In this document: positions 2,036-59,449 of the stretch, piece by piece
Layout of the letters: every line of letters begins with the position of its first letter
Numbering within the stretch: position 1 is the stretch's first letter
DNA from: Octopus vulgaris
Taxonomy: Eukaryota
NCBI GenBank assembly: GCA_951406725.2
Contig: OX597814.1
Location: 127,472,001 to 127,536,000, forward strand
Length of the DNA stretch: 64,000 nucleotides
Reading direction: 5' to 3'
The notes under the pieces: generated by a model
Database searches by the model: none
What the model saw: the letters and a program-made list of their open reading frames with translations, nothing else
What the model was told of the DNA's origin: nothing
Made by a program: the position numbers and the translations under genes

Positions 2036-2190
2036 TTCTAGCAAAAACTGTCTGATGAACGGCAACGAGAAACTCAGAGTAACAGATTTTGTTGAATTTT
2101 CTGCTGCTTTAAATAAAGCATATTACTCTACCACTGGTATTTGAGTACTCTTTTTTCCACCTTGTTTCACATTTATGTGTTTACTCCGGT
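2036..2190 (+). mobile_element. ~155-bp hammerhead-bearing short element in (TA)n (family H1)
   Basis: Flanked by (TA)n on both sides; second copy at 26790-26961; contains the HHR motif at 2043-2091. Confidence 0.75.
2043..2091 (+). ncRNA. Type I hammerhead ribozyme motif
   Basis: CTGT[2048]-CTGATGA-ACG GCAA CGA-GAAA-CTC A GAGT-A-ACAG[2085]; stem I extends as CAAAA/TTTTG after a 1x1 mismatch; GUA cleavage triplet. Confidence 0.8.
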
Positions 2191-2645
2191 GTATATATAT
2201 ATATATATATATATATATATATATATTTATATATATTATCATCATTGTTTTAACGCCCACTTTTCCATGCTTGCATGAGTCAGACAGAAATTGTTAACCC
2301 AGATTTTCTACAACCTGATGCCTTGTCTAACACCAATCGTCACCTGTTTCCAAGGAAAGTAATATTTCCCCATGGTTAGACATGTTTTTTCATGGAAGAC
2401 TGGAAACAAGCAACATTACTTGTGTGAAAGTAATGCTCATTTAAATGCTCATTAACAACCATCACATGATATCAAAACATACAAACAAAAACACTCACAT
2501 GCACGCATGAATGCATGCACACATGTAGACATGCACATACGCATGCACACACACACACACACACACACACACACACACACACACACACACACATACCCAC
2601 ATTTCTGTGTCAGAGTGTATGTGCCTAAAATACATAAGCATATAT

Positions 2646-2995
2646 ATACATGGTGCAATGGGTAAATTGTCACCATTTTATATTTTTAATTTTGTGCTTG
2701 CATAGTGTTTGTTTTTGATTTTATCAACTACACAGTATAATAGGGTCAGATGGGCACTGTTTGTGAGAAAAACAGCACCATGACACAATTTTCACTCTGC
2801 CAGAAATTTGGAAACAACATGCTGTACTGCTTGTCATTTGTGCCGGAAGCTCAATACAAACATTTCAGAGTGTTTGGGTGTCAATTTGAGGACAGTGCAG
2901 ATGATTCAGAATGAGTTAAATGAATCTAAGGGTAATTACGAAGGTACGGCAGCCCTGATATGAAAAGAATTCCTGAATTTGTTGGTGAGACCCAC
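2646..2995 (+). mobile_element. 5' fragment of DD37D/maT-type Tc1/mariner element
   Basis: TACATGGTGCAATGGGTAAATTG terminus and ATGACACAATT...CTGCCAGAAATTTGG start homologous to the 18373 end of the element at 17490-18373. Confidence 0.75.
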
Positions 2996-3634
2996 TGGGC
3001 CATTGTGCATCCACATACACACACATATATATATATTTATATATATTATGCATGCACACACGCACACACTCATGCACATGCATCTATATAAATATGTATG
3101 TATAAATATGTACACACATACATATATACATACTTACATATACATATATATGTATACAAACCTAATAAAATTATATTATACTTGAATACCCTTAATATTT
3201 TCATAATTTTATTCCATGACACTCCAACATCACGATAGAGGGAAGAAAATATACAGTTGTAGGTACAAAGGTGAAACAGCTAGAGGTTCAGCTGGAAAGT
3301 GAAATAGTCAGAATACCAGAGCAAGTTTTAGAATTCTCAGTTGAAATGTGATAGTGTTTTGAGAGGAGTGTTATCTCCAAATGCATTGCAGCTGGCTTCC
3401 ATGTTATCAGCTGAGAAACTCTACCTGGAAGCAGACAACTTCAGTATTATAACATAGCTGTAGTAGGAATGTTTGCTTAATGTGGACACACATCACTTCT
3501 GGTCAATAAACCATACAAATGTCTGCTGTGACACAGAGTCTACTGTGACACGGTCTTCTATGATATAGTTTCTCATGACTTATATTTAGAGTATTTTAGA
3601 AATATCAGTTTATTGCACACCCCTCATTCATTGG

Positions 3635-4170
3635 GCAAACTTTGCTTGCAAAGACATATTGAGGCAAGTGAAATCAAAATCACTGACATGGCCAATGACA
3701 GTACTGCCTGATTGGCACTCATGTTAGCGGAACTTTAAAAGCACAGCTGAGCGTGATCATTACCAGGGCCACGGATTGGCTCCCATGCTGGTGGCACGTA
3801 AAAAGCTCCATTCAAGCGTGATTGTTGCCAATGTCGCCAGCACATGAAAACCAACATTCAAACATGGTCATTGCTAGTGCTACTGCACTGGCTCCTGTCA
3901 GGTAGCATGTAAAAAACATCTTTTGAGCATGGTCGTTGCCAGAACTGACTGACTGGCTCTCATGCCAGTGACATGTAAAAGCACCCACTACACTCTTGGA
4001 GTGGTCGGCGTTAGGAAGGGCATCCAGCTGTAGAAACTTTGCCAGATCAGATTGAGCCTGGTGCAGTCCTCAGATTGAGCCTGTGGCTCACCAGTCCTCA
4101 ATCAAACCATCCAACCCATGCCAGCATGGAAAGCAGACGTTAAACGACTATGATGATGATGATGATGATG
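3635..4170 (+). mobile_element. RTE LINE 3'UTR stub
   Basis: ~60-bp subrepeats, CACCCACTACAC...GAAGGGCATCCAGCTGTAGAAAC core, (GAT)n tail. Confidence 0.85.
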
Positions 4171-4239
4171 CACTTACTAAATATGTCACTCACTTTTTAA
4201 TATTATGCCCTGTCTCTCCAAGATACGCTCCATCTAACA

Positions 4240-4545
4240 TGATAAATGAAATCTACCATCACATACAACCTGCTATGAAACACATAACACACAATGCATT
4301 GTGACACGATTCTCTGCCAAGCCACACACCCAACCATATTACATAGTACAACCTCTACCATGATACATACAGTCTGTCATGACAGTCTCTGCTATAGCAC
4401 ACAACCTACTACGAGATATTGTTGACCATGATGCACAGTCTCTACCATGGCATGTAGCCTGCCATGACACACAGCCCACCATAAGATACAGCTTACTAAG
4501 ACACACGTTCTATACCAAGACACACAGCCTACCATGACATAAATA
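4240..4545. repeat. Degenerate ~20-bp minisatellite (CTACCATGACACACAG-like)
   Basis: Recurring ctaccatgaca/cacagcc units. Confidence 0.55.
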
Positions 4546-56360: not shown

Positions 56361-57374
56361 ATAATCTTATATAACACACTCTCTAGCCATGAACTACCAC
56401 TCAGCTAAAACATTCAAGGAGTTATAAATGCTATAGGCCTTAAAATCACAAATAATCTCTTGTGATAATGCAACAGGGGCCTAATCAGCATCTTACGGAC
56501 TAACCTTCGCTTGGTAGGCCAAGAAAATACTTGAATTCTGATGAGCAACTAATTTTCTACATGCTGAAGCAAGATACATATTAACCCTTTAGCATTCAAA
56601 TTATTTTGTAAACTGTAATGCTTTTTCATTCACGTTGTTTTTAATTAATTGCGCATTATTTTGTAGCTTCAAAATTTTGATGATGTGATTGTATATTTTT
56701 TGAATGACATTGAAGGGTATGTGTGATAGGTTGGATCTGGTTGGTTAGAACATAAAACAGATAGCATGTGTGACATCTTAGGCAAGTGTCTTCTACTATA
56801 GCCTCAGGCAGACCAAAGTTTTGTGAGTGGATTTGGTAGACAAACAAAAGAAAGAGGTGCCCAGTACATTTAATAGTGGTTACATGTATTATTATTTAAG
56901 ACAGTTTGATTTGGCTCCATGCAACTTAAAAGTTTTGCAGGCTTCTAACAGAAACCAAGCTCATTCAGCCTCAGATTGCAGAATGGAGAGATACAGGAAT
57001 ATGCTTATTTCCCCACTCCCCATGGACAATGCTGTTGTAATTACTTTAGTATACATATTAGTTTAAATACTAATGGGTTAAAGTACTGGTCACATATCTA
57101 GAATGGTGCTACTATTAAACAAATATCTTAGAGCACACTCAAAAAAGCCATCTAGCTGATTGGCAAAATTTTACTCACGAGCACATTACAACTGCTGAAT
57201 TGGAGACACAATGTTTCTTCTTTCAGCTTAATCTCCCACAACTGTAATAACCTCTGCTTCACTAAACAAGCTTGCTGTGTACCATTTCCAACCAAGCCAA
57301 TCTAACATAATTATCTTCCTTTCCTACTTTGTCTCACAGCTGACATCTGGTACTAAATTCATTGCTCAGTCTTT

Positions 57375-57787
57375 CCTGGCAATTGACCTGCTATGCTTGA
57401 GGAGACCTATTGAGTCAAGTACATCAATATCAAAATAAATATCAAATGGAAATTGTAGTTGTGATACCTGTGCCGGTGGCACATAAAAATCACCATCCGA
57501 ATACGGTTGATGCCAGCGCCGCCTTGACTGGCTTCTGTGCCGGTGGCACGTAAAAAGCACCAACCAATCATGGCTGCTGCCAGCCTCTCCTGGCACCTGT
57601 GCTGGTGGCATGTAAAAAGCACCCACTACACTCATGGAGTGGTTGGCGTTAGGAAGGGCATCCAGCTGTAGAAACACTGCCAGATCAGACTGGAGCCTGG
57701 TGCAGTCTCCTGGCTTCCCAGACCCCGGTCAAACCGTCCAACCCATGCTAGCACAGAAAATGAACGTTAAACGATGATGATGATGAT
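57375..57787 (+). mobile_element. RTE 3'UTR stub
   Basis: Subrepeats, tail, (GAT)n. Confidence 0.85.
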
Positions 57788-58789
57788 AATTCTCAGTAAT
57801 CCTTCAGAATTTCCTTTCCATCCACAGTTTTTGTGCAAACTTCACCCTATAGATATTAAATCGAACACCAGCCATATCAATCTCAACAATCTAGGAACAT
57901 TTCTCTCTCTCTCTTGCTAAACACACACACACACACACTGTGCCTCTACAGCTTCCGTCAGTTAAATCATACTCACATGATTTTGATCAACCTTAGGCTA
58001 TAATTGAAGACACAAGCCCTATGTGCCACACTCAGTGGCACTAGGTTTCGAATCACGCAGTTGCAAGACAAGCTTCTTAACCACACAATTATTCCTGGTT
58101 ACTTTTACTTAAAGGATTTATTTTCCCTCCATTTTGATGTTTTCAACAAGGATGTGAATAACATTTCACAAATGGCTGGCTTTTATTTGAATCAGTTTAT
58201 GATAATTAGGTTAGAAAATTTGAAGTCCTTGCTTGTTTTGAATGACTTAAAATAAACTATTAAGTTCAGATGAATATGACATGATTCTGAACTATTTCAT
58301 TCTGCTTCACTGAAAACTATGATGAAATGTTTTAATAATGTGAAATGGCTTTGACTAATAAGAAGTCATGTGTAATTTATCTACATGTCCTGTTCATGAT
58401 AATTAAAGTTATTAACGAAAGTTCTGAATGTTTTGAAATAAAGAATAGAGATTGAAAGCCAGAGACTGGCAGTGAATATTTGAATTTTAGTTTTTTTAAA
58501 CTGTACAATTTTGCAACAAACTCTTTAGATTGTTCTCAACAACTTTTCACTGATTCAATCAATACCCATGTTTAACACTTTTACCAAGTAGAATTTGATA
58601 GACAGACACTGCAGAGGCCTGATATATGTGTGTGTGCGTGCGTGCATGTGTGTGTGTGTGTGTGTGTATATATATATATATATATGTATGTATGTATATA
58701 TTATCGCTTACTGCCTTCCATGCTGGCATGGGTATATATATATATATATATATATATATATATATATATATGCATATATATATATGTAT

Positions 58790-59052
58790 ATGTTTGATCA
58801 TTGCCAGAGAGGTCGTTGCCAGTGTCGCTGGACTGGCTCCTGTGCAGGTGGCACGTAATAAACACCATTTGAGCGTGGCTGTTGCCACTACCACCTGACT
58901 CTCATAGTGGTTGGCATTAGGAGGGGCATCCAGCTGTAGAAACTCTGCCAGATCAGATTGGAGCCTGGTGCAGCCATCTGGTTTGCCAGTCCTCAGTAAA
59001 ATCATCCAACCCATGCTAGCATGGAAAGCGGATGTTAAACGATGATGATGAT
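58790..59052 (+). mobile_element. RTE 3'UTR stub within (TA)n
   Basis: Conserved tail and (GAT)n. Confidence 0.85.
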
Positions 59053-59223
59053 GTATATGTATGTATATATATATATATATATATATATATATATATATAT
59101 ATATATATATATATATATATATGTATATAGATATATATATACATACATATATATATATATATATATATATATATATATATATATATATATATATATATAT
59201 ATATATATATATATATATATATA

Positions 59224-59449
59224 TTTCAACATGTGATCTCTTGAGCACCACTAGCAAAAATATTTTTTCCTCTGTCTTCCCTTCTTGGGATCTTTCCTTC
59301 TCCTTGTTTCCGACGAAGAGCTCCGCTCGAAACGTTAAACCCTCCTTCCCTTCTTTCCTGAGCGTCAATAATACTTTAATTGTTCCACGTCCTCACGTTG
59401 CTGTGTTTTTTTTTTCTCTTTTTTTCTGTGTTTTCTTGTTTGGATTAAC
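59224..59449 (+). mobile_element. Short element with hammerhead-like motif in (TA)n (family H4)
   Basis: Long (TA)n on both sides; motif at 59306-59340. Confidence 0.65.
59306..59340 (+). ncRNA. Minimal hammerhead-like motif, variant core
   Basis: GTTT-CCGACGA-A-GAGC TCC GCTC-GAAAC-GTT-AAAC; U4->C deviation. Confidence 0.55.

Follow-up and report, generated by a model that had tools for sequence, protein, structure and literature searches.

Hammerhead-like motifs in a 64-kb window of the Octopus vulgaris genome and their probable place at the ends of Penelope-like elements

We analyzed a 64-kb stretch of the Octopus vulgaris genome (contig OX597814.1, positions 127,472,001 to 127,536,000 of assembly GCA_951406725.2; this whole stretch of 64,000 nt is hereafter called the window), which is dense in microsatellites and carries short repeats resembling minimal type-I hammerhead ribozymes, sorted here into nine families (A, B, C, C2 and D to H; Table 1). 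Hammerhead-like sequence was present at every place named in a preliminary description of the window, and the cores at 21575 (+) and 21546 (–) are additional to those listed there. The hammerhead-shaped short repeats of this genome are real. We consider it very probable that they are minimal type-I hammerhead motifs in the pseudo-long terminal repeats (pseudo-LTRs) of several families of Penelope-like elements (PLEs), that four of them form the ends of protein-coding elements whose short copies are likely by-products of the elements' own reverse transcriptase (RT), and that three others are likely non-coding elements that depend on these enzymes.

The assembly comprises 2.8 Gb in 227 contigs, and the genome sample (1 Mb) consists of 100 segments of 10 kb each, taken at fixed positions from contigs C1–C19; the structure descriptor used for the search demands just two base pairs in stem III. 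Four strict descriptor matches were found in the window as compared to 0.17–0.37 in 30 locally shuffled windows, none of which reached four. In the genome sample, motifs amounted to 49 per Mb versus 6.7 in shuffled sequence, with 15 matches to canonical cores (0–1 in five shuffles), 10 to U3-A8 cores (1–3), eight to U4C cores (none) and nine to position-6 variants (0–1). The excess over shuffled controls anticipated by the preliminary description was therefore found in both data sets. The window is not exceptionally rich in such elements, as six descriptor matches in 64 kb lie near the genome rate (~3 expected). Extrapolation of the ~40 structured motifs per Mb over background gives roughly 100,000 genome-wide. 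All DNA examined yielded 42 motif clusters, 15 of them present at two or more loci (one of the 15 being a single window site counted twice). Rfam reported no hammerhead family among its 148 matches to the window at E ≤ 5, and the Hammerhead_1 model (RF00163), with which the motifs had been proposed to be found, matched at >34 bits six genome sequences among 73 scored candidates and none inside the window. With only six genome matches, the RF00163 model does not describe these motifs.

The descriptor topology (three stems, core boxes and an NUH cleavage site) was found in B, D, C and C2, and in A with a weak stem II; the window copies of F, G and E are damaged. Descriptor and window sequence together bear out the originally described type-I minimal topology with family-specific stems. 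The claim that all cores read CUGANGA had to be dropped (CCGACGA at 59310, CUGUAGA at 15110 and CUGAAAA at 42251), and the motifs near 15079 and 59306, initially given as one family, belong to two related ones (C2, core 15110; C, core 59310). As for the putative partial motifs, 26900 proved to be a fragment of family A and 19045 a relative of B, neither with a CUGANGA half.

Family A, whose ribozyme has two pairs and an A-A mismatch in its weak stem II and a near-palindromic stem III, is represented by 3,677 exact motif matches in the genome. Inspection of 30 loci (97–100% identity) revealed an open reading frame (ORF) at >80% identity in 15 of them, which was uninterrupted over 723–727 amino acids in three of four long stretches. 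The pseudo-LTR flanks the 727-amino-acid ORF on both sides with 99% identity; in stretch L102, for instance, the order is pseudo-LTR, 727-amino-acid frame, 1-kb 3′ untranslated region (UTR), pseudo-LTR and (TA)n. As read in this frame, the single ORF encodes an RT followed by a C-terminal GIY-YIG domain, with RWK and DKT motifs. The CxCx5C linker is complete in stretch L103 and has phenylalanine for its second cysteine in L101, L102 and L104, and CxxC and CxH around a conserved E and N are present in all four stretches. A Pfam search of the protein returned no match. Family A is the end (pseudo-LTR) of an autonomous PLE, which by its motifs is of Hydra type. The inverted pair at 26788–26960 matches the A element at 92–93%, starting 9 nt downstream of core position C3.

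Family B forms the best hammerhead of the set, with a 4-bp stem I, a 5-bp stem II and an 8-nt self-complementary stem III. Its motif has 467 exact matches, and among 100 of these that were listed there are 11 divergent pairs 2.5–15 kb apart and a direct pair spaced by 5,996 nt. In the direct pair, an ORF starts ~53 nt beyond the end of the upstream copy; its first 74 codons share 44% identity with the A protein over 43 amino acids (E = 3e-11), and the start of the frame has 20 matches at ≥98%, one of them within another B pair. Family B is probably the pseudo-LTR end of a young Hydra-type PLE of ~6 kb, with its ORF linked by coordinates. The inverted duplicate in the window lacks the last 81 nt (the tail) of the forward copy, and the inverted piece (positions 1–166 of the family) was found alike in most of 30 loci. 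Short inverted pairs such as 18416–18824 would be misclassified as miniature inverted-repeat transposable elements or unknown repeats. We had considered B a fixed-length non-autonomous element, given seven pattern matches ending at a fold-back or TA run and the 30 top matches, a view overturned by the kb-spaced pairs and the ORF start; since samples of top matches under-represent long copies, like caution applies to family H. An assignment of B to the Hydra-like family in stretch L041 was also rejected, because the coordinates disagree for the listed matches on contigs C1–C3. That stretch (L041, 2165–3247) and related matches represent another Hydra-like group with many open frames of ~900 amino acids, and an inverted hammerhead half-motif lies upstream in L041. 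The B relative at 18861–19316 (B2) has 11 matches in the 1-Mb genome sample. Family B sequence was also detected in runs of five organism codes and is thus not confined to this assembly; no RNA run was among the listed holders, and four contig sets without joints or ends provide no evidence either way.

Family C carries a U4C core in 17 of 18 other copies. Pieces of a PLE ORF lie upstream of it on the same strand in six of 12 long stretches, 2.6–4.4 kb before the ribozyme, and were reached by an upstream walk through a shared CA/CATA tract. The linker before the C-terminal GIY-YIG domain reads CX4CxxC (stretch L380), which fits the pattern CX2-5CxxC, and every copy read was frameshifted. These features identify C as the 3′ end of a Neptune/Nematis-type PLE, a designation that does not distinguish Neptune from Nematis. 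In six stretches (L377, L380, L384–L386 and L388), the 3′ UTR of C consists of 2.6–4.4 kb of CA/CATA repeats that are in register between copies; C copies cut off early would seed microsatellite-like tracts genome-wide. Family C2, which has U at core position 6 throughout and 22 matches of ≥40 nt in the 1-Mb sample, aligns with C and is hence a related family, with a C-G/G-C exchange in stem I between the two.

An upstream 30-mer of family F has 536 exact matches in the genome. Of 30 loci picked by pattern, 25 have ≥100 nt of additional upstream sequence in common, which is in frame with RT and GIY-YIG motifs and has variable 5′ ends. Translation of stretch L313 yielded RT followed by GIY-YIG, with no zinc linker and one internal stop. 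Family F is thus the 3′ end of a Penelope/Poseidon-type PLE. The window copy is missing three bases at the predicted cleavage site, as are many others that form a subfamily (window 50590–50600; stretches L125–L144): at least 15 motifs in 20 search-picked loci, and one of eight in the unbiased sample. A tRNA-like segment with A-box- and B-box-like sequence by eye (window 50368–50450; L311–L340) begins ~30 nt past the F stop codon; ARAGORN called no tRNA in 20 loci and Rfam none in three stretches. Describing F as a tRNA-headed short interspersed element (SINE) is not the whole story, as the head runs upstream into the PLE ORF. Nine of 17 incidental matches start at or just before the tRNA-like head, and a short derivative of RNA polymerase III type beginning there is possible.

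Taken together, the link to Penelope-like RT/GIY-YIG proteins suggested in the preliminary description is confirmed by ORFs joined to A, C and F and, by coordinates, to B. No PLE ORF was found inside the window itself. A large Neptune-type PLE family lies outside the window (stretches L274–L303), with its own U3-A8 hammerhead and (TA)n at its end and 20,448 first-look candidates for its C-terminal part; as a partner of families B to H it was rejected, because it carries its own ribozyme.

The remaining families lack a linked ORF. Family D, with a 7-bp stem I and a long interrupted stem II, has a longest stop-free frame of 89 amino acids; it is periodic in the window, shows an in-register upstream duplicate in five of 20 loci and occurs as partial tandems with one ribozyme, and fits a non-autonomous reading. 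Family E (stem I of 3 bp; stem III of 4 bp closing a 6-nt loop) reads UUGAAAA, with U3-A8 in 16 of 17 copies, where the window core reads CUGAAAA, and forms one four-unit tandem array (stretch L122, units of 198–208 nt); it is probably non-autonomous and retrozyme-like. In the window copies of family G, stem III is broken in both and position 16.2 is no longer paired; of two other loci found, one retains the palindromic stem III and stem I. Family H combines a 7-bp stem I and a palindromic stem III with a short inverted duplicate, retains G3 and C8 in all 23 other distinct copies, and has 4,474 exact genome matches as opposed to none for the reversed control. The 100 matches listed, all of one subfamily, include inverted pairs lying side by side and a single direct pair at a distance of 306 nt (by coordinates), with no multi-kb pairs among them, and H is likely a non-autonomous element with a unit of ~306 nt. 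The earlier proposal that all families are non-autonomous and mobilized in trans therefore fails for four of the nine (A, B, C and F, which are PLE ends) and can apply at most to D, E and H.

Most window copies border on (TA)n (Table 1). Among unbiased matches, (TA)4 was found at the 3′ side in 10 of 11 A, 14 of 19 C, 16 of 22 C2 and five of eight H copies, and in one of 21 F copies, versus 9% of random windows. These counts match the published insertion of Hydra elements into (TA)n, for which the zinc linker has been suggested as a possible guide. TA targeting, described beforehand for most of the elements, holds for most families and not for F (50563), nor do the flanks of 21371–21520 and 21531–21775 show it.

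Table 1. Hammerhead-like features of the window, with position of the core and (TA)n runs at the ends.
Feature	Positions	Strand	Core and other details	(TA)n at ends
Family A, solo pseudo-LTR end	2036–2191	+	Core 2052 (+), CUGAUGA; predicted cleavage after 2081	Both
Family C2, hammerhead-like motif	14995–15180	–	Core 15110 (–), CUGUAGA; loopless ACGU stem III	Both
Family B, 5′ inverted duplicate	18416–18577	–	Core 18551 (–), the second core; 162 nt, 99% complementary, no spacer	Both (18416–18824)
Family B, probable pseudo-LTR end	18578–18824	+	Core 18604 (+); predicted cleavage after 18638	Both (18416–18824)
Family B2, inverted pair and tail of B relative	18861–19316		Cut inside ribozyme; GAAA half and stem I 3′ arm left	Both
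Family G, decayed old inverted pair	21371–21520		Cores 21428 (–) and 21463 (+)	Neither
Family H, hammerhead-like motif	21531–21775	+	Core 21575 (+), GUGAACA, G3-C8, window copy also A9U; core 21546 (–) in inverted duplicate	Neither
Family A, inverted pair of fragments	26788–26960		Cut inside stem II; no CUGANGA half	One
Family D, non-coding head-to-tail unit	30730–31312	–	Core 30941 (–); ~523 nt, terminal duplication	One
Family E	42212–42375	+	Core 42251 (+); C3-A8 mismatch in window copy	One
Family F, 3′ end of PLE	50368–50665	+	Core 50563 (+); tRNA-like segment, (AAT)n linker	Neither; nearest run 51 nt off
Family C, 3′ end of PLE	59225–59449	+	Core 59310 (+), CCGACGA; loopless ACGU stem III	Both

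Several features of the motifs recur across families. When all 16 combinations at core positions 3 and 8 were allowed, C-G accounted for 28 matches, U-A for six and G-C for four, and the remaining 13 for 0–4 each (C-A four, U-U three), compared to 0.2–2.0 in shuffles; a Watson-Crick 3-8 pair is family-wide in E (U3-A8) and H (G3-C8). In line with the palindromic stem III noted at the outset, self-complementarity of this stem was ≥0.83 in all 12 multi-locus clusters in which it has ≥6 nt, whereas 36 shuffled matches averaged 0.61. G5, G12, A13, A14, A15.1, U16.1 and a non-G at position 17 are kept across families, and an extra base after A9 recurs across clusters though it was not required. In family D, the ten core columns depart from the majority in three of 180 cells versus 319 of 4,483 elsewhere (p 0.002), or versus 229 of 3,981 when CpG columns are removed (p 0.018); position 7 is free to vary in D and F, the other core columns being almost invariant. 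Because 3-8 pairing, stem III palindromy and conservation of the D core are not forced by the descriptor, the fold is under constraint across families. Among 38 C/C2 copies chosen by sequence alone (36 distinct), 93.3% of cells pair, a value reached in none of 500 shuffles, and 17 cells are changed on both sides. In cofolding, the dimeric hammerhead had the lowest energy for A, B and D.

The ends of the copies suggest how short elements may arise. Relative to C3, forward copies of family A end at +138 and inverted copies at +71, and incidental 5′ ends cluster at –10 to –24; a 31-mer located 60 nt upstream of the core has 1,257 exact matches, compared with 3,677 for the core itself. Family B follows the same plan, the forward copy having the 81-nt tail. 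Most copies break off shortly before the ribozyme, and many of them carry an inverted duplicate at the 5′ side. We propose that a tandem source copy would be transcribed from within its upstream pseudo-LTR, ~10–25 nt before the ribozyme core, and that the RT/GIY-YIG protein would nick AT-rich DNA, which for Hydra and Neptune types would be (TA)n. Complementary DNA (cDNA) would start inside the RNA at one of two sites bounding the tail, as reported for a lizard PLE (PMC11167929). From the first pseudo-LTR, the cDNA would run off the RNA 5′ end after 150–300 nt and leave a solo end, and a second priming or fold-back would produce the inverted duplicate without tail. Cleavage by the ribozymes is predicted to require dimers joined via the self-complementary stem III and is probably weak or assisted by protein; the lizard PLE hammerhead cuts only with protein present (PMC11167929). 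Selection for the fold would act on source copies, with most inserted copies decaying later. Copy ends and ORFs are read directly from the DNA, and run-off and cleavage are what we infer from them. With their 97–100% identical copies, the young families A and B offer a genome-scale test of this internal-initiation model, their tails ending at fixed positions and their 5′ ends lying shortly ahead of the ribozyme.

Several observations weigh against the placement of the motifs in functional PLE ends and against the proposed scheme. C3-A8 gave four matches, equal to G3-C8. Core columns of E, H and C are not significantly more conserved than the remainder (p 0.65–0.75), and the conservation of the F core loses significance without CpG columns (p 0.18). 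Covariation in C/C2 is mostly one exchange between two lineages (two pairs changed on both sides; 352 of 500 shuffles as high). The suggested check for covariation and core conservation thus came out in favor of the 3-8 pair and the D core, and not of the E, H and C cores. Cofolding gave no hammerhead dimer for C, E, F and H. B is tied to its ORF by coordinates together with a single 281-nt stretch, not by continuous sequence from motif to ORF, and in all DNA examined C2, D, E, G and H had scattered ORF neighbours only, separated by repeats where inspected, so that the status given to these five families is inferred. The drop from 3,677 to 1,257 matches is inflated, because exact matches only were counted and upstream variants and inverted duplicates contribute, and the transcription start site is deduced from copy ends alone. 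Finally, ribozyme mutants of the lizard PLE still insert in vitro (PMC11167929).

The last of these points also bears on a reading that we regard as rather unlikely, in which the motifs are PLE pseudo-LTR structures, many of them no longer cleaving and serving as protein-binding or promoter elements, and in which U4C, A6U, G3-C8 and the loss of three bases in F reflect relaxed catalysis. Family-wide changes at core positions 4 and 6 would be explained in this way, and the F motifs without cleavage-site bases (at least 15 in 20 search-picked loci) indicate that a ribozyme-dead subfamily has spread. In the lizard PLE, no RNA ends were seen at the site alongside the insertion of mutants in vitro (PMC11167929), minimal PLE hammerheads are described as weakly active in vitro (PMC4209133), and A6C has low activity (PMC3088659). 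Against general relaxation, changes at 3-8 are mostly Watson-Crick, as catalysis requires; the conserved core bases listed above, from G5 to the non-G at position 17, persist across families; and in the unbiased sample only a single F motif of eight is without the site.

We consider it improbable that all families are independent non-autonomous retrozyme-like elements moved in trans, with ORF-linked copies being incidental. In favor of this reading, most copies are short and lack coding sequence, the non-coding unit of D is arranged head-to-tail, E occurs in a tandem array and no long forms of H were seen; in addition, non-LTR retrozymes have been published as non-autonomous PLE derivatives (PMC7229834; bioRxiv 10.64898/2026.07.22.740005). 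Yet A flanks its ORF on both sides, F leads in frame into RT/GIY-YIG and has variable 5′ ends, a PLE ORF lies ahead of C in half of the long stretches and B precedes the start of a Hydra-type ORF, and for A, C and F such a reading is already refuted. That chance matches in AT-rich repeats were simply multiplied by transposition is hardly credible, for although copies within a family are not independent and RF00163 recognizes few of the candidates and none in the window, 15 multi-locus clusters share one topology with differing stems, unrequired features recur (stem III palindromy, 3-8 pairing and the extra base after A9), and each motif lies near the 3′ end of a different PLE.

Returning to hammerheads as ends of PLEs, the system itself is of a known kind. 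Earlier publications already cover hammerheads in PLEs, the presence of many families in one genome, targeting of TA and a hammerhead-bearing Hydra element from octopus; what is new are the families themselves. Minimal hammerheads in PLE pseudo-LTRs were described as many families per genome, mostly as single truncated PLE ends and with opposite-strand pairs 100–700 bp apart (Cervera & de la Pena 2014, PMC4209133). The motifs reported here share with them the type-I fold, a short palindromic or absent stem III, the extra base between positions 9 and 10.1 and the U3-A8 variant, and differ by their occurrence in cephalopods, a G3-C8 core and a family-wide A6U, which are not mentioned in the passages of that article consulted here. 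In Octopus bimaculoides, Hydra-1_Obim is a TA-targeting, hammerhead-bearing Hydra element (Craig et al. 2021, supplement of PMC8557442). With the Hydra clade as described there, family A has in common RWK, DKT, the CxCx5C linker, a C-terminal GIY-YIG domain, a hammerhead near the 3′ end and insertion into (TA)n, and a relationship between the A protein and that of Hydra-1_Obim is evident from the printed sequence (PMC8557442). A and B are nevertheless distinct from Hydra-1_Obim, having other ribozyme stems: A measures 3.4 kb and has a 67-nt tail as well as clear pseudo-LTRs, and B measures ~6 kb, as opposed to 2.5 kb and 'no pLTR' for Hydra-1_Obim. With Poseidon from Anolis (Frangieh et al. 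2024, PMC11167929), the present elements share a tail with two fixed ends, AT-rich targets and a pseudo-LTR hammerhead. A CX2-5CxxC linker before GIY-YIG places C with Neptune/Nematis, and its absence F with Penelope/Poseidon; particular to C is the 2.6–4.4 kb CA/CATA 3′ UTR, and to F the tRNA-like segment with (AAT)n before the ribozyme. In one paper annotating Octopus vulgaris repeats, the main text contains neither 'hammerhead' nor 'ribozyme'.

Non-LTR retrozymes, short tandem hammerhead units that are likely PLE-moved or PLE-derived (PMC7229834; bioRxiv 10.64898/2026.07.22.740005), provide the nearest comparison for the families without ORF, and 16 hammerhead families have been reported for one coral genome. 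Families D and E, and probably H, resemble retrozymes and the hammerhead SINEs of Schistosoma (reviewed in PMC6765202) in being short, apparently non-coding, low in GC and arranged head-to-tail or in partial tandem. Unlike in retrozymes, the ribozymes here are of the minimal PLE type and most copies are monomers with 5′ inversions, known from DNA alone.

Natural U3-A8 and A6C hammerheads have been described (PMC3088659). A natural G3-C8 core was not encountered in the literature searched, which excluded the supplements of PMC4209133 and Lunse, Weinberg and Breaker 2016/2017, the likeliest source; a G-C swap at 3-8 appeared there solely as an engineered partial rescue. Family H could be a natural, predicted active G3-C8 hammerhead on a non-autonomous element of ~306 nt with >4,400 copies, a proposal that we put forward tentatively and with a slight leaning against it. 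If true, one genome would use C-G, U-A and G-C at core positions 3-8 in addition to U4C and A6U cores, and H would escape descriptor searches that admit only CUGANGA or UUGANAA. Natural core variants, above all G3-C8, make the need for cutting in PLE hammerheads directly testable.

Beyond the nine families, a lone canonical core lies at 49255 (–); its stem III is a 10-nt palindrome, and two of the four pairs of its stem I are wobble pairs. No second copy was found in the DNA examined. Stretches L189, L194, L197 and L288 contain another U3-A8 family, whose stem II is GC-rich and whose stem I has 6 bp, with three copies within 750 nt in L194. Elsewhere in the window, broken RT frames of the long interspersed element type, which we take to be RTE-like, occupy 51469–53349 and 24602–26100 near dispersed SINE-like repeats, and a 37-bp minisatellite (20.6 copies, 94% matches) spans 39679–40449.

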